A DNA stretch of 64,000 nucleotides from Clostridiales bacterium (GCA_028724525.1 JAQYCV010000033.1:36290-100289); one strand, 5' to 3'; shown: positions 3,887-29,106, counted from the stretch's first letter. Made by a program: numbers and translations. The notes: generated from the sequence alone by a model not told the origin.

Positions 3887-3978
3887 TGGCGGAGAGCAAG
3901 AGATTCGAACTCTCGAAACGCTATTAACGTTTACACGATTTCCAATCGTGCGCCTTCAGCCAACTCGGCCAACTCTCC
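3887..3978 (-). tRNA. tRNA-Ser (anticodon GGA)
   Basis: The reverse complement reads GGAGAGTTGGCCGAGTTGG...CACGATTGGAAATCGTG...long variable arm...GAGAGTTCGAATCTCTTGCTCTCCGCCA. It has a cloverleaf with a GGA anticodon loop, a TPsiC GTTCGAATC and an encoded CCA. Confidence 0.9.
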
Positions 3979-9946: not shown

Positions 9947-10043
9947 GGGAGCAGATGGGTGCTGGTGTGCCCCGCGGTCTTCAAAACCGTTGCGAGGGGT
10001 TAGAAGCTTCTCCGGTGGGTTCGATTCCCACGTGTTCCCGCCA
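9947..10043 (+). tRNA. selC: tRNA-Sec (anticodon UCA)
   Basis: 97 nt. It has a 6-bp D-stem with a 4-nt loop (GGGTGC-TGGT-GTGCCC), anticodon loop CTTCAAA (UCA), a long variable arm, T-arm GTGGG-TTCGATT-CCCAC, a long acceptor stem and an encoded GCCA end. Confidence 0.85.
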
Positions 10044-14400: not shown

Positions 14401-15009
14401 TTACTTGCTCTCTTTGCCCTCTACAGGGAATTTCGCTTTTTCTAAAGCCAGGACCACCCCCATGCCTAGAACATAAATGACTAGGGATTGGGAGAGGAAG
14501 ATAGAGGCGATAGATCCAATGATTTCCAGGGTAGTGGGCGTGTGCTCAAGGAGGAGATAGGGCAGGTAGGAACCTACAATGACGGCATTGAACAAGATGG
14601 GGGGAAAGAGCATGACAAAGCGCATAAAACGCTTTTTCCAGGTATTGGCCTCTATCTTGCTGTAGTCTGGCCGCCGCTCCGCCAGGATTATTCTCCGATA
14701 AGGCTTAGCCAGCCAATAGGTGGCCATGGCTGCAATGAGGGTAGCCAGACTACCGCCGAAGATATCAATAAGGCCCAAGTTATTGGGATTTAAGATATTC
14801 GACAAGAGGCAGCCCAGGAAGACACCCGGTATGGCCATAGAGCTAAAGGCAGGCATGACCGTTAAAACTTCAGCCAGGCGGAACTGCACCATGCCAAAGC
14901 TAAAGGAGGCAAAGGGCAGGCAAAGGACAACGTAGAGAGCGGCAACGATGCCGGCTATGGCTACGTTTAAGGGCTTGAGCTTAAATTTTGATGCTTTATT
15001 GTTTGACAT
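14401..15009 (-). CDS. queT: QueT family queuosine-precursor transporter (ECF S-component type)
   Basis: Polytopic, with the ...AALYVVL...FGMVQFRLAEVL... signature region of QueT proteins. Confidence 0.75.
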   Translation of the reverse strand: MSNNKASKFKLKPLNVAIAGIVAALYVVLCLPFASFSFGMVQFRLAEVLTVMPAFSSMAIPGVFLGCLLSNILNPNNLGLIDIFGGSLATLIAAMATYWLAKPYRRIILAERRPDYSKIEANTWKKRFMRFVMLFPPILFNAVIVGSYLPYLLLEHTPTTLEIIGSIASIFLSQSLVIYVLGMGVVLALEKAKFPVEGKESK

Positions 15010-18000
15010 TTTCTAAAATAATTTCCAATTCTTCTCCGTTGATATCCCAGGTCTGCTTCTGGTCACGCAGGTCAGCGGGAGCCTGGTCTAGGGGTAGGAT
15101 ATCTATACCTAGGACATCTGCTAAGAGGGCTTCCTTATGGTTTTCCACGATATGCCAGAGCTTGTCTGTACCGCCAAAGTAGAGCTTAATCCGGTCGGTC
15201 AAATCAAAGTCGGCATCCTTCCGCATGGTTTGAATCTTGGACACGATCTCGCGGAGGAAGCCTTCCTCAATCAGCTCAGGGCTCAGCGTGGTATCTAAGG
15301 CAACCGTTAGTCCGTAATCAGAAGCGGCGGCGTAGCCCTCTGCCTGCTGGTTTTCCACCAGGAGCTCTTCTTCGGTCAGAGTTTCAGGGCCTTCTGACAT
15401 ATGAATTTCAATGGCTCCCTTCTGTTTAAGCTCCTTGTAGGCTTTGACACCATCAAGTTCACTCAAAACTTCCTTAAGCTGGTTAAGGCGTTTGCCAAAG
15501 CGCTTACCCAGGAGCTTGAGCTGGGGTTTAAAGCGGTAGTCCTGGAGTTGGTCAGCGTCATCGGCTTTTTCCAGGCGTTTGACATTGAGCTCGTCTTCAA
15601 CCAATTTGGCAAAATCTTCTTTCAGATGGTCCCCGCCCACAATCAGCATGCGGGAGAGGGGTTGGCGGGTCTTGAGCTGAGATTGGGCCCGGGCAGTCCG
15701 GCCCAGGTTGACCAGCTTGAGGACAAGGTCCATCTGGTCTTCCACCTCTGGCTTAATGAGGCTTTCGTCCGCCTTGGGATAGGCGCAGAGGTGAACAGAT
15801 TCTGGAGCCGAGGGGTCTAGGCCTGCTACGAGGTTTTGGTAGATTAGCTCAGCCATGAAGGGGGTAAAGGGGGCGGACAGCTGAGCCAAGGTGACCAGGA
15901 CGGTGTAGAGGCATTGATAGGCATCTACCTTATCCTGGGGCATGCCAGCTACCCAATAGCGTTCCCGGTTGCGGCGGACATACCAATTGGAGAGGTCATC
16001 CACAAACTTTTCCAAGAGTTGGGTTGCCGTTAAGATATCAAACTTCTCCAAGCTCTGGGTGACCTGGACCACCAGGGTGTTGAGGCGGGAGAGAATCCAG
16101 CGGTCGATGACCTTGACCTTGTGGGGATCCCAGGGGTTGTCCTGGGGCTTGAACTGGTCAATTTCCGCATAGAGCACGTAGAAGGCATAGGTATTCCAGA
16201 GGGTGCCCATGAATTTACGCTTGTCTTCTTTGACCGCATCTAGAGAGAAGCGGGAGGGCAGCCAGGGCTGGCTATTGGAGTAGAAATACCAGCGGACCGC
16301 ATCCGCACCCTCGGAGTCAATGGCCTCCCAAGGATCCACCACATTGCCCTTGTGCTTGGACATTTTAATGCCGTCCTTGTCTTGGACGTGGCCCAGGACA
16401 ATACAGTTCTTGAAGGGCTCCTGCTCAAAGAGCAGGGTCGCTTCCGCCGTCAAGGAATAGAACCAGCCCCGGGTCTGGTCGACAGCCTCAGAAATGAAGT
16501 CAGCCGGGAAACGGTCCTTAAAGGTATCTTGATTCTTGAAGGGATAGTGCCACTGGGCATAGGGCATGGCCCCGGAGTCAAACCAGGCATCGGCCACCTC
16601 CGGGATCCGGGTCATAAGTTCGCCGCACTCTGGGCAGGTCAGGTGGACTGCGTCAATATAGGGGCGGTGGAGCTCAATTTCCTCCGGGCAGTCCGGTGAC
16701 ATGGCCTTGAGCTCCTCAATAGAGCCTACCACATGGTCGTGGCCATTGGGGCAGCGCCAGACCGGCAGAGGCATCCCCCAATAACGTTCGCGGGAAATGT
16801 TCCAGTCAATGACATTTTCCAGGAAATTGCCAAAGCGTTTTTCACCCAGGGTGGGGGGAATCCAGTTGACCTTTTGATTGTTAGCCACCAGCTCGTCCCG
16901 AACCTTGGTCATTTCAATAAACCAGGAGTTGCGAGCATAGTAGATGAGGGGGGTGTGGCAACGCCAGCAGAAGGGATAGGAGTGGTTATAGGCCTGGACC
17001 CGGATAAGCTTGCCCTGGTCCTTGAGCCAATCAATAATCTGCGGGTCTGCATCCTTGACAAAGAGTCCAGCAAAATCTGTAACCTCCGGGGGCATGGTCC
17101 CATCATCCCGCACAAACTGTACGAAGGGCAGGTCGCAGGCCTTGCCCAGGCGGTTATCGTCTTCACCAAAGGCTGGGGCGATATGGACAATACCCGTACC
17201 TTCGGTCGTTGTAACAAAGTCTGCCGTAGCAACATACCAGGCCTTCTTGCCAGACTTAGCCACAATATCCTCAGCATAGGAGAAGAGGGGCTCATAGGCT
17301 AAGCCTGCCAGGTCTTGGCCACTCAGTTCTTTCAGAACCCGGCCAGGATTTTCGCCAAAAACGGCTTCTTGCAGGTCTTTGGCCAGATAGTAGCGCCGGG
17401 TCTGGCCCTCTTCTTCCCGCTCCAAGAGGACATAGGTCACTTTAGGGTTTACAGCCAGGGCTAGGTTAGAAGGCAGGGTCCAGGGGGTAGTAGTCCAGGC
17501 CGCCAGGTAGGTATTGTCCTCACTCTTGACGGCAAAGCGGACATATATAGAGTTTTCTGTGACATCTTCATAGCCCTGGGCGACTTCATGACTGGCCAAG
17601 GCCGTGCCACAGCGGGGGCAGTAGGGCACAATGCGGTAACCCTCATAGAGGAGACCCTTTTCCCAGATCTTCTTCATGGCCCACCATTCAGACTCAATAT
17701 ATTCTTGGTCATAGGTGACATAGGGATGGTCCATATCCGCCCAGAAGCCGACCCGCTTGGACATCTCTTCCCATTCAGACTTATATTTCCAGACAGATTC
17801 CTTGCACTTCTCAACAAATTCTTCAATGCCATAGGCTTCAATCTGTTCCTTGCCTGAAATGCCCAGCATTTTTTCCACTTCAATCTCGACGGGCAGGCCA
17901 TGCGTGTCCCAGCCCGCCTTGCGCAGGACATTGTGGCCCTGCATGGATTTGAAACGTGGAATCAAGTCTTTGATGGCCCGGGTTAAAACGTGGCCAATAT

Positions 18001-18163
18001 GGGGTTTGCCATTGGCCGTAGGGGGGCCGTCATAAAAGGTATATTTGTCTGCGTCCTGGTGGAGCTTGACCTGCTTTTTAAAAATCTGCTGATCCTCCCA
18101 AAATTTGAGGATCTCTTCTTCCCTCTTTACAAAGTCTAGGGAGTTATCAACTTTACGGTACAT
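14996..18163 (-). CDS. ileS: Isoleucine--tRNA ligase, long (type-2-like) form
   Basis: 1055 aa with HIGH motif GKPHIGH and KMSKS motif KMSKHKGN. RBS GGAGG lies before the ATG, and a T-box leader lies upstream. Confidence 0.95.
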   Translation of the reverse strand: MYRKVDNSLDFVKREEEILKFWEDQQIFKKQVKLHQDADKYTFYDGPPTANGKPHIGHVLTRAIKDLIPRFKSMQGHNVLRKAGWDTHGLPVEIEVEKMLGISGKEQIEAYGIEEFVEKCKESVWKYKSEWEEMSKRVGFWADMDHPYVTYDQEYIESEWWAMKKIWEKGLLYEGYRIVPYCPRCGTALASHEVAQGYEDVTENSIYVRFAVKSEDNTYLAAWTTTPWTLPSNLALAVNPKVTYVLLEREEEGQTRRYYLAKDLQEAVFGENPGRVLKELSGQDLAGLAYEPLFSYAEDIVAKSGKKAWYVATADFVTTTEGTGIVHIAPAFGEDDNRLGKACDLPFVQFVRDDGTMPPEVTDFAGLFVKDADPQIIDWLKDQGKLIRVQAYNHSYPFCWRCHTPLIYYARNSWFIEMTKVRDELVANNQKVNWIPPTLGEKRFGNFLENVIDWNISRERYWGMPLPVWRCPNGHDHVVGSIEELKAMSPDCPEEIELHRPYIDAVHLTCPECGELMTRIPEVADAWFDSGAMPYAQWHYPFKNQDTFKDRFPADFISEAVDQTRGWFYSLTAEATLLFEQEPFKNCIVLGHVQDKDGIKMSKHKGNVVDPWEAIDSEGADAVRWYFYSNSQPWLPSRFSLDAVKEDKRKFMGTLWNTYAFYVLYAEIDQFKPQDNPWDPHKVKVIDRWILSRLNTLVVQVTQSLEKFDILTATQLLEKFVDDLSNWYVRRNRERYWVAGMPQDKVDAYQCLYTVLVTLAQLSAPFTPFMAELIYQNLVAGLDPSAPESVHLCAYPKADESLIKPEVEDQMDLVLKLVNLGRTARAQSQLKTRQPLSRMLIVGGDHLKEDFAKLVEDELNVKRLEKADDADQLQDYRFKPQLKLLGKRFGKRLNQLKEVLSELDGVKAYKELKQKGAIEIHMSEGPETLTEEELLVENQQAEGYAAASDYGLTVALDTTLSPELIEEGFLREIVSKIQTMRKDADFDLTDRIKLYFGGTDKLWHIVENHKEALLADVLGIDILPLDQAPADLRDQKQTWDINGEELEIILENVKQ

Positions 18164-18500: not shown

Positions 18501-18577
18501 TATGGGGGCTTTTGCGCTTCAGATGCGGTCTTCTGTCTTTTTAGAAAGACCTTATCCAGGCGAAAAAGCACGTCCAA

Positions 18578-18606
18578 AGTATACTAAACACAAGGGTAGC
18601 CGTCAA
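18578..18606 (-). promoter_or_regulatory. Candidate sigma-A promoter of the ileS leader
   Basis: Minus strand reads TTGACG, a 17-nt spacer, then TATACT. Confidence 0.4.
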
Positions 18607-18684
18607 AAATTTTAATCTTAGAGGCTACAAGTTGATCAGGCATAAAGCTTCGCATATGACCTTATGTACACGAAATCTTATCCG

Positions 18685-19329
18685 TCAGGAGATCTTATGT
18701 GTAGAGACAATAACCCCCCGTTCCCTCAGAACTAGGAAATACACCATAGCAAGGACAAAAAAGTGAAAAAGAATCGTCAGTCCTGCCTGGCTGAAATACC
18801 AGCTCATTTTTATTTGCTCATCTAAAAGGAGCGTTGGCCAGGCAAAGAGATTAGCTAGAGATACAGGCGGTTGGGTACAGATGATAATCCAGATCCATAG
18901 GGCCACTGTCCAGCGCCGACTATTATTAGACAAATTAATAATTTGGTCATACATTCCTAAAAATATAGAAATTATAATAAGCCAGCACATAAAGTGTAGG
19001 GCCCCTAACCACTCGATAGAAATATTGAGTGGGTAGGAAAGCAAGATACAACCTGCTCCAAGCACGACAATTTGAGGCACTAACTCCTGCAGTACATATT
19101 TTACGGAATACATCAGGTAATCTTTATAACTTTTTAGCCTGGGCAATAGAAAATTCAGTTCAAAACTATGGACAAACAGAAAGTAAATAAAAATAGGATA
19201 GAAAAGACGACCTGATACTCTCTGAAAAATATTGATCGTTCCTTTATCACCAAAATCTATGACATTGAAGATAAAGTAGCCTAGCCAAATGAGTAAGAAT
19301 TTATATCGATTAGCTTTTATGCTTTTCAT
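18685..19329 (-). CDS. Polytopic membrane protein, probable permease partner of the adjacent ABC ATPase
   Basis: 214 aa and AT-rich, with several hydrophobic segments. Its start overlaps the upstream ATPase gene by 20 nt. Confidence 0.5.
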   Translation of the reverse strand: MKSIKANRYKFLLIWLGYFIFNVIDFGDKGTINIFQRVSGRLFYPIFIYFLFVHSFELNFLLPRLKSYKDYLMYSVKYVLQELVPQIVVLGAGCILLSYPLNISIEWLGALHFMCWLIIISIFLGMYDQIINLSNNSRRWTVALWIWIIICTQPPVSLANLFAWPTLLLDEQIKMSWYFSQAGLTILFHFFVLAMVYFLVLRERGVIVSTHKIS

Positions 19330-19969
19330 GGTTATCCGGACAAGAGCTCCCTTTCTTGAGGGCTTCTATAGGCAAAATAGTATCAGCAATGTTTGTTATA
19401 TCTGCTTGATCATGGCTGGTAAAAATAATTGTTGTTTGTGGGCTCTTAAAATGCTTAAAAATATTTTGCACTAGCTCAACACTTTGCTCGTCTAGGGCAT
19501 TAAAAGGTTCATCCATAATCAAGTACTTAGGGTGTTCCATGAGTGCTTGAATAATTCTCATCTTTTGCTTCATACCCTGAGAGTAAGTTTTATAAGGCTT
19601 ATGGATAGCCTGGGTAAGACCCATTTGGTCTACCCACCATAAGACTTCTTTTTGATTAATTTTTTTGCGGATATTGGCCAGATACATAAGGCTGTCATAA
19701 CCTGTCCAGGCAGGCATAAATTCCGGCTGGTTAATGCTTACTCCCGCATCCTGAATAAAATCCACGTCGCGCCCTAGAACCTGTCCATCAATCAGGACTT
19801 GGCCGCTATCCGGTGTCATAAAACCTGTCATAAGGTTCAAGAGCACACTTTTGCCACTCCCATTTCTTCCGACAAGGCCATAGGCATGACCATCTAGAAA
19901 AGTGAAATTTATTTGGTGAAAAATTTCTTCATACTGAAAACTTTTACTAATATTGATCAACTGAATCAT
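19310..19969 (-). CDS. ABC transporter ATP-binding protein
   Basis: Walker A GRNGSGKS, signature YSQGMKQK, Walker B LIMDEP. Confidence 0.85.
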   Translation of the reverse strand: MIQLINISKSFQYEEIFHQINFTFLDGHAYGLVGRNGSGKSVLLNLMTGFMTPDSGQVLIDGQVLGRDVDFIQDAGVSINQPEFMPAWTGYDSLMYLANIRKKINQKEVLWWVDQMGLTQAIHKPYKTYSQGMKQKMRIIQALMEHPKYLIMDEPFNALDEQSVELVQNIFKHFKSPQTTIIFTSHDQADITNIADTILPIEALKKGSSCPDNHEKHKS

Positions 19970-19988
19970 AAGGGGGCTCTTTCTATTG

Positions 19989-20864
19989 CTATACTCTCAC
20001 TTTTGCATGCCGGATTTGATTACTTATGATAAGTCCCGAAGGTAATAGAGTAGGAATCAGCTGTAGAATAAAAAATGGTATAGTAGCTACATTTCTTATA
20101 GAATTAGGTATACATAGGCGAGCGGGCTCTAGATATTGTAGCAAAGTGTGTAGCCAAGACGGCATTATATTCATGCCACCTAAGCGATTAAAGAACAGAG
20201 TAAGCGCATAATAAGTTAATACAGTCACCAGAAGGACTTGATACCTCTTTTCAAACACAAGACCTAATGTGCTTCCCATAATTGAAAATAAAAAGGGAGC
20301 ATAGCCGTACTGTACACTGTAAACCATAAAATAGTAGAGCTTACGATGGTCAAAGTAAAAATCTACCCCGAAAAGATCTAAGAAAAGGCTCGCTCCGTTG
20401 GTACTTCTAGGGGGTAAGATGTCTGGCGCCCGTGCGATGCGTAGGCCCCTCTCCACATCCGCCGGCGTAGCAAATGCAATGTGCAGGAAGAAAATCAATA
20501 AGAAGGCGGCATAACAAGCCAGAGCAACATGCAAGCTATTCAGCAAAATATCATGCAGGACCAGCCCGCGATAAGTCCTAGTCCGAGGCGCTTTCAATGG
20601 CCAAAGATGTTTGCGGATAGAGACAAAAAGCATACCCGCTATCCCTCCATAGATCGGTCCTTGAAATTGGAAACTCTCATGCAAATGGAAGACAACCGAA
20701 TCAAAAGAGAAAGTTGATTGCAAAACCTCAGATACGTCTACAGCAGACCACTTAATTAGGAAGAAATTACGAGAAACAGCCAAAGAGATATAAAAATACA
20801 GCAACAGGCTGAGCATGATGAGAAAGAATGTCGTATCAAAGAATCTTTTTAGTTTAACTTTCAT
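19989..20864 (-). CDS. Polytopic membrane protein (permease-like)
   Basis: 291 aa and AT-rich, with multiple TM segments. First gene after the hairpins at 20.93-20.99 kb. Confidence 0.5.
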   Translation of the reverse strand: MKVKLKRFFDTTFFLIMLSLLLYFYISLAVSRNFFLIKWSAVDVSEVLQSTFSFDSVVFHLHESFQFQGPIYGGIAGMLFVSIRKHLWPLKAPRTRTYRGLVLHDILLNSLHVALACYAAFLLIFFLHIAFATPADVERGLRIARAPDILPPRSTNGASLFLDLFGVDFYFDHRKLYYFMVYSVQYGYAPFLFSIMGSTLGLVFEKRYQVLLVTVLTYYALTLFFNRLGGMNIMPSWLHTLLQYLEPARLCIPNSIRNVATIPFFILQLIPTLLPSGLIISNQIRHAKVRV

Positions 20865-20933
20865 TATTCAGCCTACTCAATTTTCTCTATGATCTAACTA
20901 TTAGTCTATCATATATAGTCTTGAAAATGTATT

Positions 20934-20958
20934 AGGCTTTAGCTCGGAGCTAAAGCCT
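20934..20958 (-). terminator. Intra-island hairpin (possible terminator or processing site)
   Basis: Perfect 11-bp stem AGGCTTTAGCT-CGG-AGCTAAAGCCT. A second perfect 8-bp hairpin, GGCAAAAT-GA-ATTTTGCC, lies at 20976-20993. The downstream T-tract is weak. Confidence 0.4.
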
Positions 20959-21055
20959 AGCCTTTCCTCATCTAGGGCAAAATGAATTTTGCCAGCGGCC
21001 GTGTGATGTGAGAAGACTATCTACAAGCCCAGCTAAATGCTCCCATATTGGAATA

Positions 21056-22936
21056 TTATTTCCTAAGCAATTTCTCCTCTTGGTAGCGATAGAGAACCGC
21101 ATATTCCCCGTTTTTATCTAGGAGTTCTTGATGCGAGCCTTCTTCAATTATTCTTCCATTCTCCAATAAAATTATTTTGTCAGCCGCATGAACATTTGTA
21201 AAATTATGACTTATCCATAGAACTATATGCTGACTTGCTTCTTGCTGTACCCATTTTAGAATTACTCTTTCTGACTTGATATCAACATTTGATGTTGGCT
21301 CATCCAAAATCAATACCTGATGTTTACGAAAAAACGCTCTTGAGAGAGCAAATTTTTGATTTTGCCCAACTGATAATTCAAGACCTTCGGAATCAAACAG
21401 CCTTGTAATATTGTGGTTCATACCTCGCTTTGCCTTATTAAAAAAATCGGTACATGCAGCGCTCTCCATTGCTTTTATCGCTCGTCTATCAAAATTTTCA
21501 CTGAATATCACACTTTTGCCTTCTTGTTGATCGTTAAGTGAAAATGCATTATCTGAAATCATATAATTCTCTCTTATAGAAAAAGGAAAATTTAGCATAT
21601 TCTGGAAGTACACTGAAAATCGTGATCGTAAGTGCTCTAAAGAGAATTTCCTTATATCAGTTCCATTTATTAGTATTCTTCCTTCAGTCGGGTCATAAAA
21701 ACGAAGAAGCAGCTTAATTAGTGTGCTTTTACCAGAACCATTTAGACCAACAAGTGCAATCGTCTCTTTACTATGAATATGTAAATTTATATCATCTAGC
21801 ACAAGTGGACTTTCATCATTATAGCGAAATGAGACATGTTCAAATTTTATTTCCTGAATTTGTTCCTCTAGCTCACAATCCCCATCTACAATTGTATTTT
21901 CATACGAGAAGAAAGATTGTAGATTTTTAAATTTAAGTCGATTTTCATATAGTGCAATAATTGAAATACCAATACCGCTCATTCCATTCCGTACTTGCAG
22001 AAATAAATTTGTATAAAACGTATAGTCTCCTACAGTATTTTGATGCTGTAAAACTCGCAGCGCTAAGTCTAAACTTATGCCGCAAAGAGAAACAATCGGA
22101 AGTATTTCAAAAATTACTAGATAAAGGTTTCTTTTTCTTAAGACATTTCTCCTCTCGTAAAATAATTTATTCCATATCGATTCATGTTTTTTCAAAACGT
22201 ATGATTTAGAATTGAAAAGTCTAAAGTCTTGAGCATAACGCTTATCAGATGATAGACTTTGCAACAAAGAAGATTCTCTACCCTCGTTAATCTGCGATAT
22301 GCTTAACTGATATAGTTGTTTAGTGAACGATAAGGAAATTATTACTGGCGGTGCATTCACCACTAGTAGTATCAATGCATAAACCGGGGTAACTCTAATA
22401 GCTAGAAAAATAGTTCCACCAATAGCAATTATAGAACTTAGAAAATTCAACACATACCAAACTTCTTCTGCTACAGCTTCTGAATCTCTGAATGAAGAAA
22501 CCAATTTATCATACCACTCGGGCTTATCGAAAAAAACCAAGTCCATTTTCATAGCATTTTCAATTTGCTGATGAATAATATGTTTTTTAATCAGTTCAGA
22601 ATGTTCATTTGTTGCATACTCTCTCCATCTATCTACTATTGTTAATATTAATAAAATCAATAGTGTCAAACTAAAAATGAATAGCAATCTATTTAGTGAT
22701 TTCTCAATATTACCTTGAACCAAAATGTCAATCACAAGCTTCCCTAAATAGGAAAGCACAAGTGGAATGAGAGGATTGACGCACTCTATAATAATTCTAG
22801 ATATTGTATATATTTTTGACGTCCTCCAAGACAAATCCATGCAATACTTTATTGTTTTGATGGTGCTTTCGAGCGCAGTCAAAATTTTTTTAGATTTATT
22901 GTTTATTAAATTTAGAATATTTAAGTACATAATCAC
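21056..22936 (-). CDS. ABC exporter, fused transmembrane and ATPase domains, no N-terminal C39 peptidase domain
   Basis: 626 aa. A six-TM-type N-terminal half begins within about 30 residues of the start. Walker A GLNGSGKST, signature LSVGQNQK, Walker B LILDEP. Confidence 0.85.
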   Translation of the reverse strand: MIMYLNILNLINNKSKKILTALESTIKTIKYCMDLSWRTSKIYTISRIIIECVNPLIPLVLSYLGKLVIDILVQGNIEKSLNRLLFIFSLTLLILLILTIVDRWREYATNEHSELIKKHIIHQQIENAMKMDLVFFDKPEWYDKLVSSFRDSEAVAEEVWYVLNFLSSIIAIGGTIFLAIRVTPVYALILLVVNAPPVIISLSFTKQLYQLSISQINEGRESSLLQSLSSDKRYAQDFRLFNSKSYVLKKHESIWNKLFYERRNVLRKRNLYLVIFEILPIVSLCGISLDLALRVLQHQNTVGDYTFYTNLFLQVRNGMSGIGISIIALYENRLKFKNLQSFFSYENTIVDGDCELEEQIQEIKFEHVSFRYNDESPLVLDDINLHIHSKETIALVGLNGSGKSTLIKLLLRFYDPTEGRILINGTDIRKFSLEHLRSRFSVYFQNMLNFPFSIRENYMISDNAFSLNDQQEGKSVIFSENFDRRAIKAMESAACTDFFNKAKRGMNHNITRLFDSEGLELSVGQNQKFALSRAFFRKHQVLILDEPTSNVDIKSERVILKWVQQEASQHIVLWISHNFTNVHAADKIILLENGRIIEEGSHQELLDKNGEYAVLYRYQEEKLLRK

Positions 22937-23059
22937 TCTTTTGTTTAGTTATCAACTGTTACCTTATAGCACGCGAATATATTTCGCGCCTCGACTCTGC
23001 ACGTATCAATCTGGTTCGTATCATGTAGTAATCTATTCATTTTTACACTGTCAACTCTC

Positions 23060-24256
23060 TCATGACTGGTATCTCTTTAATAGATGTGACCCAGCTGTAA
23101 TGAAAAGGATCGATAGCGCAATGAGTAAAAGCAGGCTGCTCCAATAGCCAAATCCTAAATCTCCAATAAGTAGTTCCGAGATTTGAATAAAAGAAAATGG
23201 ATTGAATGGCTCTGGAACAATGACCAGACAAGATAAGAAGCCAACACAGATTACCGTCCCACCGGAATCTTTCAGAATGAGTGACAACAAATTTGTCAGC
23301 GAGAAAAGAAAAATAGAAACGCACGTATATATGATATAATAATATTTTATATAACTCCAAATTGATACGCTCTTTAGGCTGGAGAAGGCTAATTCAGGTG
23401 AAAATCGAACAAACAAACGTTCAAATATTCGCGGATTGATTAGCACCGAGATATCAGATCCGGGTCCACCCATAAATAATGCCACAGCACTCGGCAAAAA
23501 TAGCAAGAGACTCACGAAAATAAGTGTGATTAACAGCTTCACAATCACTTTGGAATAGTATATTTCTCTACATGGGTACGGTTGGGTTAATAGAAGGCGT
23601 ATCCCCCCCGATGTAAATTCTACGGCCCAGTTATTTGCGTTGATAATAACAACAAAAAACATGGCAAACAATGTAAACAGTGGAAAACTAATTGTATAAT
23701 GTAAAATTGAATTTGTCTGAGCTTTATCGCTGAAAGACTCTCCTAGAGCTAAGCTTCCTTTGTTCTTAACCAATCTTGCATATAAATTGCGAATATCAGT
23801 ATTATAAATATAATCCTCATGAATCAGATTAATCTTCTTCTTATAGATTTTTTCGTAAGCAAAATTGTCCATATCTACGATGGTTTTCTTTATATTGGTG
23901 TACTGCTGAGCTCTATGCTGATTGAACATTTCCAGTTTTTCCTGAAACATATAATACTTGAGTAAGACATCACTTTCGAATTGGTAGAGCTCTGCTTGTT
24001 TTGCCAATTCATCAGTTGGATTTTGCTGATTTGCTTTTTTTACCAAGGTATATAGATTCTGCGTAAATTCGTATGCTAACCAAAGTTTCTCTTTTTCAGC
24101 TGCTGCTAACGCTTCGCTTCTCTTCGGGAGGTCACGCTGAATTTGTTCAAACGTAGATAGAATGGCTATGCAGAACAGTACTAAAACTACAATAATTGAG
24201 AGCAAGAACCTTTTACTGATACTCTTTGTTAAATCTGCAAGAATTAAATTTTTCAT
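23060..24256 (-). CDS. ABC-2-type permease with a large extracytoplasmic helical insert
   Basis: 398 aa: TM1, then a charged region of about 170 aa, then a TM bundle. Contains an ABC-2-like ...EFTSGGIRLLLTQPYPCREIYYSK... segment. Confidence 0.6.
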   Translation of the reverse strand: MKNLILADLTKSISKRFLLSIIVVLVLFCIAILSTFEQIQRDLPKRSEALAAAEKEKLWLAYEFTQNLYTLVKKANQQNPTDELAKQAELYQFESDVLLKYYMFQEKLEMFNQHRAQQYTNIKKTIVDMDNFAYEKIYKKKINLIHEDYIYNTDIRNLYARLVKNKGSLALGESFSDKAQTNSILHYTISFPLFTLFAMFFVVIINANNWAVEFTSGGIRLLLTQPYPCREIYYSKVIVKLLITLIFVSLLLFLPSAVALFMGGPGSDISVLINPRIFERLFVRFSPELAFSSLKSVSIWSYIKYYYIIYTCVSIFLFSLTNLLSLILKDSGGTVICVGFLSCLVIVPEPFNPFSFIQISELLIGDLGFGYWSSLLLLIALSILFITAGSHLLKRYQS

Positions 24257-24257
24257 T

Positions 24258-25160
24258 CTAACTGGCTATGATTATTTCTTTATATATCTCTTCAAGCGAT
24301 TTATAGGATTTCTTTATTTCGGATATTCTGATCTTTTTGTTTAAAATGACCATCAATAAGTCATTTAGTTCGTCCTCGGTGAGATCACAATGTAAGAGTA
24401 CCGTTTTATGCGAATCTGTTTTCTTTGAGCAATTGTATCCCAGGTCTTTAAGAGTCGCTTCGAGTTTCAACATATCCTCTGTATAAATATCATATCCTCT
24501 ACTCGCTTGTTCTTGGGAAATAGCGCCATCGAATATGACTTTCCCATCGTTAATCATAATTACTCTGTCAGATATCTTCTCTAATTCAGACAGCAAATGT
24601 GAGGAGATTAAAATGCCCATTCCCTGATCTTTTAGGTGACATAGTTCTTCACGAAGCTGAAAAACTCCATCAGGATCCAGCCCATTCATTGGTTCATCTA
24701 AAATAATTAAATGGGGTTTTGGCATTAGGACCATTGTTACTATCAATCTCATTTTCATGCCAGTGGAATAAGTAGAGACTCTACTGTGAAGAGCTTCACC
24801 TAATTTTGAGAACACTTCTGCCTCAGTTATTCGTGTTTTAGGCAATTTTCTCCACTGCGCAATCAACTTGATATGATCCGCGCCCGTCAGTTCGGGATAT
24901 AGAGCAGGACTTTCGATGCTTGCACCGAGTAACATTAAAGCATTAACTCGATCCTCCCTAATATTGTGATTCTCAATGCTTATATCTCCAGAATCAAACG
25001 GAAGTAAACCACAAATACACTTCATTGCTGTTGACTTTCCAGCGCCGTTAGGTCCAAGAAGACCAACAATTTCAGACTGATTTACTTGAAAGCAAAGATT
25101 CTGAAGAACCGACTTATGACCAATCCTTTTATTAAGATTGCAAACTGAAAGTAATGACAT
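24258..25160 (-). CDS. ABC transporter ATP-binding protein (ABC-2 / LanF-like subfamily)
   Basis: Walker A GPNGAGKST, signature YSTGMKMR, Walker B IILDEP. 1-nt gap to the permease gene. Confidence 0.9.
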   Translation of the reverse strand: MSLLSVCNLNKRIGHKSVLQNLCFQVNQSEIVGLLGPNGAGKSTAMKCICGLLPFDSGDISIENHNIREDRVNALMLLGASIESPALYPELTGADHIKLIAQWRKLPKTRITEAEVFSKLGEALHSRVSTYSTGMKMRLIVTMVLMPKPHLIILDEPMNGLDPDGVFQLREELCHLKDQGMGILISSHLLSELEKISDRVIMINDGKVIFDGAISQEQASRGYDIYTEDMLKLEATLKDLGYNCSKKTDSHKTVLLHCDLTEDELNDLLMVILNKKIRISEIKKSYKSLEEIYKEIIIAS

Positions 25161-25171
25161 AATTCACTACC

Positions 25172-26521
25172 CTATGACTTATCGCTAATGTACTCAACAT
25201 TAGTTATTCCAAGTCTATTAAATGAGAACAGCAATTTTTCAATCAATTTTTTCTTCTGCTCTTCGCAGCTAAGGTTTTTCTTCTCTCGTCGCCTCAATGG
25301 GCAGTGGCCACCCATACATATTGGAAGGAAATTGCATTTCTTACACTGATTATTACTCAACGGATTGAAAAGTAAATATTCATAGTAATTATTATTATTT
25401 CTTCTATCTTCGCCAACATTATTAATGTTGCCAATTATAGCACTTGACTTTCCGATCTCTTCCCAGCATTTGCACAGGTTACCAAGCGGGTCAATCACAA
25501 AGGAATTAAACTTATCACAAGTACACGCACTTGTAATCCTGTTAGGATAAAAGTATGAAAACTCAACCTCTTTGCCATATACATTTTCAAGTGTTGTTAT
25601 GAATTTGCGTTCGAATTCTGAAAATTCATTTTCCGTTAAAGTATATTTATTCTCTGTGTCATTGTTATCAAAAACACGCGCGACATAAGGATAGACATAA
25701 TTGAGTATTTCTTCTTTATATAGTAAATCAAGCACATTTATCATAGACTGATAATTTTTTCGTGTAGAGTTTAACCTAAGAGCAATGTTGGGAAGAATTG
25801 AATGTTTTGTATCATAGAGGTCTTTCAAATTCTTCAAATTATAAATAATTTTATCAAAAGTAACCGCTCCATTTACATGTCTTCGCGTTATATCGTGATA
25901 ATGAACATCTCCATCTAAAGGTATTTGAATTGATTGTATTTTAAGATCAACGAGGGTCTTAAAAGTATAATTGTCCAAAAGGTAGCCGTTTGTTGTGATA
26001 CCACTTCTATAATTAATATTATTTTTATCACATATATCTATTAGTTCACTTGAAATGGCATTGATCTTATCCATTGCCAACAGCGGTTCCCCACCATACC
26101 AGCTTATTGATAGCATTTTGAGATTCTGGACATTTTGTTTAACGAAGCTCACAATACCATCCATTACAGAATCAGTAATATTACCCCGTTTTCGAGATCC
26201 TCTTTCAAAACAATAGGGGCAATTAAAGTTACAGTCGAGAGTTGGAGCAATTGTTATTCCTAAGCTATTATTCCCAAATTTCGCATTATACATATCAATT
26301 TGAAGCTGCTTAAGCTCATCAAATTGATTCTCAATAATTATTCCTCCATACAACATGTCCTTCTTGACAGTATCGTCTAGCAGATCAATGTATTCTTCAT
26401 CATTATTAATAAAATTTTCAGCAACACCGTCAGGAAACTCCGCCAATGCATTACTAAATGCATTATATACATAGAACTTTTCCGGTCCTCTAAAGTAGTG
26501 ATTAAATATGGATTTTTTCAT
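25172..26521 (-). CDS. Radical SAM / SPASM-domain peptide-modifying enzyme (sactisynthase/ranthisynthase-like)
   Basis: 449 aa with a CNFNCPYC (CX3CX2C) radical-SAM cluster motif. The C-terminal Cys-rich extension reads ...ACTCDKF...GNLCKCWEE...CKKCNFLPICMGGHCP.... Confidence 0.9.
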   Translation of the reverse strand: MKKSIFNHYFRGPEKFYVYNAFSNALAEFPDGVAENFINNDEEYIDLLDDTVKKDMLYGGIIIENQFDELKQLQIDMYNAKFGNNSLGITIAPTLDCNFNCPYCFERGSRKRGNITDSVMDGIVSFVKQNVQNLKMLSISWYGGEPLLAMDKINAISSELIDICDKNNINYRSGITTNGYLLDNYTFKTLVDLKIQSIQIPLDGDVHYHDITRRHVNGAVTFDKIIYNLKNLKDLYDTKHSILPNIALRLNSTRKNYQSMINVLDLLYKEEILNYVYPYVARVFDNNDTENKYTLTENEFSEFERKFITTLENVYGKEVEFSYFYPNRITSACTCDKFNSFVIDPLGNLCKCWEEIGKSSAIIGNINNVGEDRRNNNNYYEYLLFNPLSNNQCKKCNFLPICMGGHCPLRRREKKNLSCEEQKKKLIEKLLFSFNRLGITNVEYISDKS

Positions 26522-26524
26522 AGC

Positions 26525-27928
26525 TCACCTATAATTCTTATACATAGTCAATTTAGCTAACAATATTATTCCCACTATTGAAATTGCCAATAAAAATATT
26601 GCATGGAACCAGGTAAACTGCTCTGCTCCCAGAGTGATGTTCCACCCGTTAGCAACCGCAAAAGGATTGAAATAGTTTAATCTAGATCGTATGTTCTTTT
26701 GTTCAAAGAAAAAAATGCAGAACGATAGTGCAGCAACCACAACTATACGGTATTTGGACTTCATCACAGTCAGAACGACACTTGTGGATAATACAACAAT
26801 AAAAGTGACTTTCAAGAAATCAACCGTCGCGGCTCTAAGGAAGAACTCGGCAAATCTAACTGACATAAAGTCACTATAGCTGAGATTCGAAATAGTATTG
26901 TGTGCACCGTATGGCACATACAACAATTGAGACAACCCAATGTATCTAGTCGAAAAAATACCATTAGTCTGACCAAGTGAATGAAATGTGTTGTATCCTC
27001 GTCGAATAACAACCATATCCGTATTCCAATTGTAAGGTTTTCCAAGCAGTAAAGCCAAGGCACAGCTAACAATTTGAGGAATGTAATAAAAAAACAAAGA
27101 TATAAAGTAGGTTATAAAAAAAAGATGCAGAAAGCTGTGAAATCTTTTTTGTGGTAACATGAAAATATTATTAATATAGCCGGAATTAGAAATTTTAAAT
27201 ATATAATACGCTACTAAAACAGGGCAAACTGTTAAGAGAACTAGCCTTGGCTGAAAAGCTCCCCGTACGGAATTTTTTGACATTAACCTCATGAGAAAAT
27301 AATATATATTAAAATCGTTAGTCGGTTCAACGCGATCAGAAAAGTAATTATCAATCGCTCTTTCAGCCATCAACGCCAGATGTGCATATTCCACATCAGA
27401 CTTCTTTGCGTCATTACTTGCGATATCATCAAAGTCTTTAATTATATAAGGGTAACGAATAGTAGCCAAGAACGCTTTAATCTTTTCAGGATACAAGGTG
27501 TAAACATTTGGTTTTTCGTCTGTGTTATCGGTGAAAAACTGAGCCGCCAAAAGGTACTCTAGTGCATTTGTAGAGTTTGCATCACTCAGTTTTTGCTCAA
27601 AACTGTTCTTTTTTTCCAACTGATTTAGTGCTGTCATCACTTTACTTGTCTGGTAATCATAATTCGCTTCAAATCTTTCCATAAATTCGTCACCGCGACT
27701 CTTAGCTAATAGTCTCGCTCGACTTATCCAATAGCCTTTGCCTCTAATGTTTGAACTTATATGGTCACGATAAATTTCCTTCTGATGCTCAAATACTGAT
27801 GGGGACTGTACGTACAGATATAGAACCCAAGCAATAAAAAACATCAGAAGGACAAAAAATACGCGTCGAAGCGTTTTGTCACGAAAAAGCACAGACAATT
27901 CAAGACGTTTAAGAAAAAAAATATTCAT
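26525..27928 (-). CDS. Polytopic membrane protein, ABC-2-permease-like with a large N-terminal extracytoplasmic domain
   Basis: 467 aa: TM1, then a soluble region of about 190 aa, then a TM bundle. Its start lies 6 nt after the stop of the small Cys-rich ORF. Confidence 0.5.
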   Translation of the reverse strand: MNIFFLKRLELSVLFRDKTLRRVFFVLLMFFIAWVLYLYVQSPSVFEHQKEIYRDHISSNIRGKGYWISRARLLAKSRGDEFMERFEANYDYQTSKVMTALNQLEKKNSFEQKLSDANSTNALEYLLAAQFFTDNTDEKPNVYTLYPEKIKAFLATIRYPYIIKDFDDIASNDAKKSDVEYAHLALMAERAIDNYFSDRVEPTNDFNIYYFLMRLMSKNSVRGAFQPRLVLLTVCPVLVAYYIFKISNSGYINNIFMLPQKRFHSFLHLFFITYFISLFFYYIPQIVSCALALLLGKPYNWNTDMVVIRRGYNTFHSLGQTNGIFSTRYIGLSQLLYVPYGAHNTISNLSYSDFMSVRFAEFFLRAATVDFLKVTFIVVLSTSVVLTVMKSKYRIVVVAALSFCIFFFEQKNIRSRLNYFNPFAVANGWNITLGAEQFTWFHAIFLLAISIVGIILLAKLTMYKNYR

Positions 27929-27934
27929 TCCGGA

Positions 27935-28108
27935 TTATTCAGGACTGTGGATGGGACCAGACGGACAATACGTGTGATAATAGCAATTATGCGGACAATA
28001 ACTAGTACACAATCCACAAACATCAAGAGGGCAATCTCTTACACACAGATAGCATCCACTCGGTGAAATCGGGTTCTTGTTTTTCGGTTCTACCAAAAAT
28101 TTCATCAT
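27935..28108 (-). CDS. Candidate RiPP precursor peptide (57 aa, 8 Cys), absent from the ORF track
   Basis: GAGAGGAG lies 6 nt upstream of ATGATG. Translation: MMKFLVEPKNKNPISPSGCYLCVRDCPLDVCGLCTSYCPHNCYYHTYCPSGPIHSPE. First gene of the block containing the rSAM/SPASM enzyme. Confidence 0.7.
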   Translation of the reverse strand: MMKFLVEPKNKNPISPSGCYLCVRDCPLDVCGLCTSYCPHNCYYHTYCPSGPIHSPE

Positions 28109-28376
28109 TATCAGCTCCTCTCTTGTTAGTTTTAACTACATATAGAATAACATACATTTATTCGATTTCCAATAGCTATTTTCACATGAATAAAATGGGA
28201 ATCTAATATTCCTACTCTGTTCCGCTAACACTGTGCTGTCGATTTATCTGTCCATACATTGACATTTACTATTCGGAACTTAGACCCTTGAGTTGATCTT
28301 CAACATTAACTACAATCAACTGAGTTATATTAATTTGACATATTTACCGCTCAAAGGTCATTCAAGACAGGCTATC

Positions 28377-29090
28377 ATGATGGATTTACAATTTTCACAG
28401 GACATGCACCAGCTGGAAGTTTTGAGGAAGGCGACTCAGGTCGGAAAAATCCAGTTTTATAAGAACACCTTTCACCAAAGGAATACTTATCTTCGTCTGC
28501 ATCTGGACAAGCTGAGCCCAGAAGAAGCAGTCCTAGTCCTACTAACCTGTCGGGAAAAATGCGACACACCCTTGCAAGTCATGCTTGATGCAGGCGCGGA
28601 GCAATCCGAAGAAGTTTTGCTTAAAGCTGGCTTTCGCTTAGTGCGCCATTGTATCCTTGGCGATTTCAGTCAAACAGACCTAGCCGGCCCCCTAATCTCG
28701 AGCACAACAGTGGCATCTATCTCGATTAAAGAAAAGGACTCTCTGGTATTTTCACAAGCTCTGTTTGCTTATTATTGTAAAAATCATACAGATATTAATC
28801 CCTGGACCGGGAGTTTTGGAGATTTCTGTGACATTCTACCTGAGACTATTCTCTACGATCAGGATCTTCCTCTCAACTTTGCTTATATCGAAAATAACGA
28901 GATCGCCTATTGCCACGGTACGGGTGACGAAAGCTTCCAGCGTTTTAGCCAAAGCCTGGTCAGCCGGCTATTTAATCAATATGACCGCATCTACTTTGAA
29001 GCTGATGATAATGATCCCTATGCCTTGATATTATTAGGCTTATTCCGGCCCAAGGAACTTGATTACTGTAACACTTTTATTCTGGATTAG
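28377..29090 (+). CDS. Hypothetical protein
   Basis: Long ORF divergent from the RiPP block. The ATG at 28377 is preferred over the TTG at 28293. I do not recognise any motif. Confidence 0.4.
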   Translation: MMDLQFSQDMHQLEVLRKATQVGKIQFYKNTFHQRNTYLRLHLDKLSPEEAVLVLLTCREKCDTPLQVMLDAGAEQSEEVLLKAGFRLVRHCILGDFSQTDLAGPLISSTTVASISIKEKDSLVFSQALFAYYCKNHTDINPWTGSFGDFCDILPETILYDQDLPLNFAYIENNEIAYCHGTGDESFQRFSQSLVSRLFNQYDRIYFEADDNDPYALILLGLFRPKELDYCNTFILD

Positions 29091-29106
29091 CTGAAATACG
29101 ATATCG

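Follow-up and report, generated by a model that had tools for sequence, protein, structure and literature searches.

A small cysteine-rich gene in a Clostridiales genome is the likely precursor gene of a radical-SAM-modified peptide

A short, cysteine-rich open reading frame (ORF) lies on the minus strand of a 64,000 nt stretch of DNA (the whole of which is termed the window) from a metagenome-assembled genome of an uncultured Eubacteriales/Clostridiales bacterium. We judge it likely that this ORF encodes the precursor of a peptide that is made on ribosomes and modified after translation (RiPP), which would be cross-linked by a radical S-adenosylmethionine (rSAM) enzyme encoded two genes downstream, most likely through thioethers, and then secreted. 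This assignment is carried by the conservation of the ORF, its occurrence beside orthologous maturases, a leader signature found throughout a large clade, and the architecture of the enzyme. The features on which the argument depends are as follows.

27935..28108, minus strand: precursor peptide gene, 57 amino acids (aa) from the first ATG or 56 aa from the ATG at 28105
28122-28115, minus strand: Shine-Dalgarno (SD) sequence GAGAGGAG, 6 nt from the first ATG and 9 nt from the second
28144..28172, minus strand: putative promoter, TTGGAA-17 nt-TATTCT with TG at the extended -10 position
25172..26521, minus strand: rSAM/SPASM peptide maturase, 449 aa, with an N-terminal domain like a RiPP recognition element (RRE), matching PF04055 and TIGR04085

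The ORF (28108-27935, minus strand) translates as MMKFLVEPKNKNPISPSGCYLCVRDCPLDVCGLCTSYCPHNCYYHTYCPSGPIHSPE. Its ATGATG, at 28108-28103 on the minus strand, begins 6 nt past GAGAGGAG, and its TAA stop codon (27937-27935) is followed by a 6 nt gap and then by the ATG of the next gene (27928). The peptide can be divided into a leader of approximately residues 1-18 that contains MKFLVEP, a core with eight cysteines, and a tail of the form P-x-x-S-P-E. Cysteines occupy positions 19, 22, 26, 31, 34, 38, 42 and 48 in the numbering of the 57-aa form (shifted by one on the 56-aa form), with spacings of 3, 4, 5, 3, 4, 4 and 6. The first-pass annotation of this DNA had described the reading frame, the stop codon 6 nt before the next ATG, the SD sequence 6 nt before the doubled start codon, and the number, positions and spacings of the cysteines, and all of these are borne out by the window sequence. 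The choice of start codon is ambiguous, as the SD spacing favors the first ATG and the register of the family, in which members begin with MKF, favors the second. A sister strain (locus L094) carries ATGGTG where the window has ATGATG.

The putative promoter was read directly from the sequence and was not listed by a consensus scan because it scores 8/12. This candidate promoter region is kept in L094, where similarity to the window breaks off approximately 100 nt before the ATG. We also considered an RNA element in the spacer upstream of the peptide gene and rejected it, as Rfam matches only the T-box leader of ileS, which is located at the other end of the genomic island described below.

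Cysteine makes up 14% of the peptide, which is the highest share among the 138 ATG-initiated ORFs of 40-100 aa in the window (the runner-up has 10%). Given the base composition, this density has P = 6e-4 per ORF, or approximately 0.08 expected occurrences over all small ORFs in the window, and taken alone it is only suggestive of a gene. That the ORF is more than a product of chance is indicated instead by its conservation across loci. Relatives of the rSAM enzyme among 5.8 billion proteins comprise one that is 99% identical, one that is 77% identical, two that are 47-48% identical, and then a large family at or below 43%. A homologous small ORF is present near the rSAM gene in every close relative examined. 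Eight peptide variants adjoin rSAM genes whose products are 42-77% identical, and they occur in three gene orders that have the same components throughout.

The first-pass annotation had proposed a leader-plus-core precursor for an rSAM maturase and had suggested a search for its co-occurrence with orthologous enzymes. Conservation and synteny uphold the proposal, as homologous peptides stand beside such maturases in six other types of locus. The peptide of L001/L002, MKYLVEPQNKVIVSTNGCLLCVRECPLDVCGLCGSYCPHNCYYHTYCPAGPSNTPE, is encoded in a gene order identical to that of the window. In L003, L004/L005 and L088/L089 the peptide is MKFL[IV][END]PVEILQDPLCSLC[VI]R[EV]CP.D.CDNC.YCP.ECY.HNCT[RK]VNPISPESF[DN]Y and its gene is located immediately upstream of the rSAM gene, with a second, 65-aa paralogue upstream of the permease genes in L003, L088 and L089. 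The peptide of L092/L093, MKFIVEP...YCGAECYRHTCTTYNKNTPESI, is encoded immediately downstream of an rSAM gene whose product is 42% identical to that of the window. The sister strain L094 has the peptide MVKFLVEP... with a T34S substitution.

The pattern of nucleotide substitution shows that this ORF is a real, constrained coding gene. Comparison of the window with L001 gives a ratio of non-synonymous to synonymous substitution rates (dN/dS) of 0.057, based on 25 synonymous and 19 non-synonymous changes that are distributed 10/8/26 over the three codon positions, and comparison of L003 with L004 gives 0.09. The DNA upstream of the gene in the window cannot be aligned with that in L001, yet a GGAGG-type SD sequence lies 5-7 nt before the start codon in every homologue, and frame, length and cysteine register are likewise retained across loci whose flanks are unalignable. 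Since the ORF is short, lacks annotation and does not occur in protein databases, and since composition predicts its cysteine density approximately 0.08 times, it might be suspected of being an untranslated chance frame in an intergenic leader region. The dN/dS values of 0.06-0.09, the excess of third-position changes, the conserved frame, cysteines and SD sequence, and the strand-specific leader motif described below effectively refute this possibility, and we assign it practically no weight. Purifying selection, co-occurrence with a maturase, a leader that is conserved and a core that varies more are the generic hallmarks of a RiPP precursor, and all are present.

Despite this conservation, the peptide is very rare in sequence collections. 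Neither the exact 57-aa nor the 56-aa form is present among 15 billion predicted proteins, whereas all of the neighboring genes are represented there, and the ileS, citC, rSAM and ABC genes have been deposited (MDD74018xx / MDY58358xx). Searching 5.8 billion clustered proteins with a profile yielded two peptide clusters, and HMMER, run exhaustively over 1.84 billion representatives at E <= 1e-3, gave four matches, namely the two query members together with P0185 and P0184. The last of these was rejected as spurious, being a low-complexity repeat protein. An indexed homology search with the single peptide gave no matches, scans of JGI metagenomes with the peptide alignment and with the rSAM sequence gave no confirmed relative, and a tblastn search of plasmids with the peptide gave no match. 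The near absence of the family from protein databases is due in part to mishandling of the locus by gene callers. For example, the precursor of L094 was passed over for a 44-aa ORF in the wrong frame (899-1033), and the permease gene of L001 (6501-7997) was over-extended at its 5' end across the precursor.

To place the peptide in a wider context, 185,579 species-representative genomes were scanned with the rSAM alignment, which revealed at least 80 loci with rSAM identities of 29-43%. The matches listed include Clostridium botulinum, C. tepidum, Paraclostridium, Tissierella, many Collinsella and some Proteobacteria. In the 80 loci listed, 132 small ATG-initiated ORFs on the strand of the rSAM gene open with M-x-[FYW]-[ILV]-x-x-P, all but three of which (129) carry at least four cysteines. 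On the opposite strand there are two ORFs with the motif, neither of which has four or more cysteines. At least one ORF with the motif is found in 58 of the 80 loci, and several of the remainder are cut off upstream. Because the motif is both strand-specific and tied to cysteine-rich ORFs, we conclude that MKFLVEP represents a leader signature of the entire clade. Among the matches listed, the first cysteine of these ORFs falls mostly at position 15-17. K2 and P7 are invariant in the leader, whose residues from the motif to the first cysteine are variable. The division into leader and core made in the first-pass annotation holds, but the Lys/Pro-rich stretch and the terminal SPSG by which it had characterized the leader vary among homologues, and the conserved part is MKFLVEP.

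Two other groups of precursors emerged from the same clade. One is encoded in L006 (4271-4507), L007 (4273-4506) and L086 (1331-1528 and 1985-2206), where the rSAM enzymes are 42-43% identical to that of the window and the six-gene layout is the same. These precursors of 65-78 aa start with MKY[IL]VNPNNR and share a strikingly conserved end, ...EINSTGSF[IM]. Since this ending parallels the P-x-x-S/T-P-E tail of the window subfamily, C-terminal tails may be functional. The other group comprises dozens of Collinsella loci from the human gut (L019-L083; for example, L058 2939-3244), whose rSAM enzymes are 30-33% identical to that of the window. Their precursors are 36-46 aa long, begin with sequences such as MEWITEP..., MNWVIDP... 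and MSWIVKP..., and are not matched by the Clo7bot peptide model discussed below.

The rSAM enzyme has features expected of a peptide maturase. Its CxxxCxxC motif (C97/C101/C104) and eight C-terminal cysteines are invariant in 17 rSAM sequences. An AlphaFold2 (AF2) model (pLDDT 85.3, pTM 0.84) has a three-domain architecture consisting of an N-terminal RRE-like domain, an rSAM barrel and a SPASM domain. In this model, the N-terminus (residues 7-59) is predicted to form strands at 7-11, 16-20 and 25-29 followed by helices at 33-39, 42-47 and 50-59, an arrangement that resembles the layout of a RiPP recognition element. The best Foldseek matches are to CteB (5WHY/5WGG; E approximately 1e-17, TM-score 0.66-0.70, 446-470 columns) and extend over the full length of the protein; anSME, SuiB and SkfB come next, and EpeE is also among the weaker fold relatives. 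The best NCBIfam matches are all maturases of cysteine-rich peptides, namely those of the Clo7bot system (TIGR04334, 280.2 bits against a cutoff of 600), TIGR04463 (241.9 against 525), CefB (NF038107, 207.4 against 600), PapB (NF047865, 116.7 against 340) and SCIFF (TIGR03974, 73.3 against 425). Weaker matches include DynA of the dynobactin system (78.8 bits), YhhB (70.6 bits) and FxsB (45.6 bits).

The model fold and the match to CteB support leader binding by the RRE-like domain and, by analogy, thioether formation. We infer a pathway in which the leader, composed of MKFLVEP and approximately 10 variable residues, would bind to the RRE-like domain at the N-terminus of the rSAM/SPASM enzyme. 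The enzyme, whose fold resembles that of CteB, would then tie cysteine thiols of the eight-cysteine core by radical chemistry to carbons of other residues and yield a densely thioether-bridged peptide, although the number and positions of the links are conjectural, as is any bioactivity of the product. The links may be to C-alpha, as in sactipeptides, or to C-beta/gamma, as in ranthipeptides. A dedicated ABC exporter would secrete the product, and an ABC-2 transporter consisting of an ATPase and two permeases, resembling LanFEG, would either export the product or protect the producer.

Systems of this general kind, in which a cysteine-rich precursor is accompanied by an rSAM/SPASM maturase and ABC transporters, are well known. 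The closest is the Clo7bot system, which has been defined computationally by a precursor model (TIGR04333) and a maturase model (TIGR04334, ctpM). On a RefSeq Paraclostridium plasmid, for instance, the computational annotation shows seven Clo7bot cysteine-rich peptide genes, with two small hypothetical genes among them, followed by ctpM. The Clo7bot leaders MKFIKKP and MKYIVKP resemble MKFLVEP of the window and are likewise followed by a cysteine-rich core whose first cysteine is near position 15-18. The Clo7bot maturase, which combines RRE-like, rSAM and SPASM domains, is the best NCBIfam match of the window enzyme, and an ABC exporter is found nearby in both systems.

The differences from Clo7bot are nonetheless substantial. 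The window rSAM is only 33-34% identical to the ctpM proteins of C. botulinum and Paraclostridium. TIGR04333 does not match the window peptide even at E <= 10, and it scores the peptides of L001 and L003 at 7.8 and 9.4 bits against a cutoff of 31, whereas the positive controls from C. botulinum and Paraclostridium reach 58.1 and 44.3 bits. The model also fails on the L006, L092 and Collinsella peptide types. There is one precursor in the window and two in L003 and L088, compared to 6-10 tandem copies in Clo7bot loci. The window core is longer, with CxxCxxxCP half-motifs and the P-x-x-S/T-P-E tail, and the window operon adds an ABC-2 permease pair and an ATPase, with one of the permeases encoded between precursor and maturase.

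Comparisons with other maturases follow the same pattern of partial resemblance. CteB, a maturase of solved structure from a ranthipeptide system, which acts on the cysteine-rich SCIFF peptide CteA (thermocellin), is the best full-length fold match of the window enzyme, including the leader-binding and SPASM domains, but the two are 21% identical and peptides of the window subfamily do not match the SCIFF precursor model. SCIFF peptides have a longer leader of a different type and six cysteines, are usually encoded on the chromosome, and are widely conserved. PapB, another of the NCBIfam matches, makes the ranthipeptide freyrasin from PapA by linking Cys to the beta-carbon of Asp in CxxxD repeats. 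The window peptides also place acidic residues after cysteines, as C-P-x-D/E in the main type and C-x-R-D/E in most members, but the spacing is CxxD/E rather than CxxxD, and the eight cysteines are accompanied by just two motifs of this kind. The spacings of 3, 4, 5, 3, 4, 4 and 6 likewise differ from those of CefA, the substrate of CefB, in which a cysteine recurs at every fifth residue. The window subfamily is distinct in having its own core, tail and operon layout; it also fails every curated threshold and is unannotated.

Most members of the subfamily share a core of eight cysteines with spacings of 3, 4, 5, 3, 3/4, 4 and 5/6. This main type follows the pattern C-x2-C-x3-C-P-x-[DE]-x-C-x2-C-x2/3-C-P-x2-C-Y-x-H and ends in the tail P-x-x-[ST]-P-E. 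Among the matches listed, none of the 83 other clade peptides has C..C...CP or the P-x-x-S/T-P-E tail. The L092 member has only six cysteines, at different spacings. Two C-x-x-D motifs had been noted earlier as a feature of the core, and both (CVRD and CPLD) are indeed found in the peptide. The second (CPxD/E) is conserved in the main type, but the last position of the first varies as D/E/E/V/E.

This core has an unusual likeness to ferredoxins. Residues 18-43 (27980-28057) resemble two ferredoxin half-motifs, CxxCxxxCP, set back to back, and the Fer4 model PF00037 scores the peptide at 23.1-23.2 bits against a gathering cutoff of 21.1, with four of the eight subfamily members matching. The best matches of the peptide profile to the PDB are all Fe-S proteins, and its core halves align to the NdhI motifs CEVCVRACPID and FCGNCVEYCPTNC (E = 0.003). 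When peptides were shuffled with the cysteines fixed, none of 10 matched Fer4, and shuffles with both cysteine and proline fixed scored 6.7-11.3 bits. As shuffles that keep Cys and Pro fail to reproduce the score, the likeness exceeds that conferred by the C/P skeleton. The CxxCxxxCP-x-D and CxxCxxxCP-x-x-C segments resemble the last three cysteines of each ferredoxin motif (PF00037; NdhI/NuoI, PsaC), and the resemblance extends to the non-cysteine residues V-R, N, Y and D.

One explanation for this likeness is that the peptide is a minimal ferredoxin-like protein that binds an Fe-S cluster or metal and is not a substrate at all, serving for example as an electron donor for the rSAM enzyme. 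Clostridial 2[4Fe-4S] ferredoxins are approximately 56 aa long with eight cysteines, and the size of the peptide resembles theirs; the Fer4 matches, the NdhI alignment and the shuffling results also favor this explanation. However, neither half contains a complete CxxCxxCxxxCP, as the match spans positions 11-23 of the 24 in the profile (13/24) and the first cysteine of each motif is missing. The halves abut, whereas approximately 30 residues separate the two motifs of NdhI. The six cysteines of the L092 peptide, at other spacings, are unlike conserved cluster ligands. The leader motif is common to hypervariable, multi-copy precursors of the clade that do not resemble ferredoxins, there is no other candidate substrate for the rSAM enzyme in the island, and the genes occur in a RiPP context rather than one of redox metabolism, travelling with exporters and immunity-type transporters. 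For these reasons, a genuine ferredoxin is unlikely, and we give this explanation very little weight.

A second explanation retains the peptide as a substrate and supposes that its core is deliberately ferredoxin-like, such that the eight thiolates contributed by the two half-motifs and two additional cysteines could bind an Fe-S cluster or metal in the unmodified precursor or even in the secreted product. In one version, the substrate could dock on the auxiliary cluster of the SPASM domain by mimicking a cluster-binding loop. In another, the product could be a secreted metal- or cluster-binding peptide instead of a conventional thioether bacteriocin. We regard this proposal as improbable, but if it were true, a ferredoxin-like core would constitute a new functional type of rSAM RiPP.

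Several observations weigh against assigning the ORF as the precursor of a thioether-bridged, secreted RiPP. The thioether model leaves the ferredoxin-like core unexplained. No characterized product was found in the literature searched for any member of the clade, Clo7bot included, and the genome-mining studies and review consulted do not treat this clade. The maturase falls under the cutoff of every curated NCBIfam family. The operon encodes no leader peptidase and its exporter lacks a C39 domain. Both nucleotide differences between the ORFs of the window and L094 are non-synonymous (only two in total, and thus tiny numbers). Finally, within this superfamily, the type of linkage does not follow from overall sequence similarity (PMC10288494).

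This last point, which makes overall similarity an unreliable guide to function, also leaves room for a different chemistry, whereby the rSAM enzyme forms C-C or C-O cross-links on Tyr or His residues (as in CY-x-H) or epimerizes the peptide, and the cysteines are engaged in disulfides or metal binding in the product. Conserved aromatic residues are abundant in the core, with Y43 and H45 being invariant in the peptide alignment (A1), and the cyclophane-forming maturases YhhB and FxsB, the dynobactin enzyme DynA, and the fold relatives SuiB and EpeE are among the weaker matches of the enzyme. On the other hand, its best family and fold matches are to maturases that act on cysteine-rich peptides, including the thioether-forming CteB and PapB. 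Moreover, cysteine richness is the sole constant feature of the core across the clade, in which Tyr and His are not conserved. We therefore consider non-thioether chemistry unlikely and favor thioether cross-linking of the core.

The gene provides an unannotated entry point into a large rSAM/SPASM clade, of which Clo7bot-like systems are abundant in gut Clostridia and Collinsella, and precursors that gene callers have missed can be located by means of the signature M-x-[FYW]-[ILV]-x-x-P. No current concept is overturned by the finding. If the product proves to be a densely cross-linked antimicrobial or metal-binding peptide of gut anaerobes, it would be of interest to the natural-product and microbiome fields.

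The peptide gene is the first of a tightly packed six-gene operon on the minus strand, in which it is followed by genes for a 467-aa membrane protein, the rSAM/SPASM enzyme, an ATP-binding cassette (ABC) ATPase, an ABC-2 permease and a fused ABC exporter. The first-pass annotation had placed the rSAM gene adjacent to the peptide gene, which is incorrect; the neighbor is the gene for the membrane protein, and the rSAM gene is the second gene downstream. The window contains no further copies of the precursor. The remaining features of the operon, together with a second set of transporter genes on the same island, are as follows.

26525..27928, minus strand: 467-aa membrane protein, a divergent ABC-2 permease paralogue, which starts 6 nt past the peptide stop codon
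24258..25160, minus strand: ABC transporter ATPase, 300 aa, matching PF00005 and best matched by TIGR03740 (lantibiotic protection, LanF-like)
23060..24256, minus strand: ABC-2 family permease, 398 aa, matching PF12679 (ABC2_membrane_2, E = 9.6e-10)
21056..22936, minus strand: fused ABC exporter with membrane and nucleotide-binding domains, 626 aa from a GTG start, matching PF00664 at 42-317 and PF00005 at 380-549
20959-20933, minus strand: terminator-like hairpin with a 12-bp stem, recognized by consensus match only, at which the operon probably ends
18685..20864, minus strand: second ABC set, comprising a 291-aa membrane protein, a 219-aa ATPase and a 214-aa membrane protein

The protein encoded between precursor and maturase has no match in Pfam or NCBIfam, and BLASTP finds no similarity between it and the 398-aa permease. 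Its relationship to the latter is revealed by hhalign, which aligns the families of the two proteins (A3 and A4, each built from six loci) with 97.3% probability and E = 2.3e-11 over 190 columns that correspond to the membrane domain. One homologue of the 467-aa protein matches PF12730 (E = 3.9e-4), and the two proteins have a common topology, with a first transmembrane segment, a loop of 150-190 residues and approximately five more transmembrane segments. A member of the 467-aa family is found in every related locus; the one in L092, a membrane protein of 457 aa, shares 26% identity with the window protein (E = 3e-43). A single-sequence AF2 model had a pLDDT of 41 and was discarded as unusable. 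The 467-aa protein probably serves as the second permease of a LanFEG-like ABC-2 transporter. We considered whether it might be a leader peptidase or a new kind of tailoring enzyme and rejected both on the basis of the hhalign homology and the shared topology; the gene wedged between precursor and maturase thus appears to encode part of a transporter rather than a new enzyme.

In having one ATPase and two homologous but divergent ABC-2 permeases, the operon resembles LanFEG immunity systems. The permeases of the window are, however, much larger (398 and 467 aa), each with its 150-190-residue loop, and an immunity function can only be inferred. The ATPase scores 197 bits with TIGR03740 against a cutoff of 309.75. 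The fused ABC exporter is the probable exporter of the product and has homologues in L001, L003, L006, L007 and L086. It carries no peptidase domain, and an N-terminal C39 domain would not fit. The 219-aa ATPase of the second ABC set also has its best match among lantibiotic-protection proteins, and this set, which is not found in the related loci L001, L003 and L006, may add immunity.

The operon resides on an island of low GC content, which lies between the T-box leader of ileS and citX.

18502..28400, no strand: low-GC island of approximately 10 kb, with GC of approximately 0.30-0.42 and one 300-nt bin of 0.49, compared to 0.50-0.56 for the genome
18225-18501, minus strand: T-box leader (RF00230) at the left edge of the island, 88.2 bits (gathering cutoff 93), E = 1.6e-18

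The T-box leader sits upstream of ileS (14996-18163). The cluster of L001, whose rSAM is 77% identical, is also low in GC (0.356 versus 0.50) and occupies another chromosomal site, beside trmD/rplS. The cluster of L003 is located between MobC/relaxase genes and a gene for a LanM-type lanthipeptide synthetase (L003 265-2420 and 13296-16049), and this locus looks like a mobilizable element carrying two RiPP systems. A transposase gene occupies the expected place of the rSAM gene in L088 (5986-6684, minus strand), and a gene for a 480-aa DDE transposase adjoins the 65-aa paralogue in L090 and L091. Judged from these sequence contexts, the cluster is on a horizontally acquired island and the subfamily is mobile.

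The spacer between citX and the peptide gene is approximately 1 kb long in the window (28210-29106) and approximately 190 nt long in L094 (760-900). The extra DNA, which could represent either a remnant or an insertion specific to the strain at the edge of the island, carries a 265-aa ORF with a TTG start (28293-29090, plus strand) that has no family match. Elsewhere in the window are genes for tRNA-Ser (anticodon gga; 3887-3978, minus strand) and tRNA-Sec (anticodon tca; 9947-10043, plus strand), the latter of which indicates that the host uses selenocysteine.

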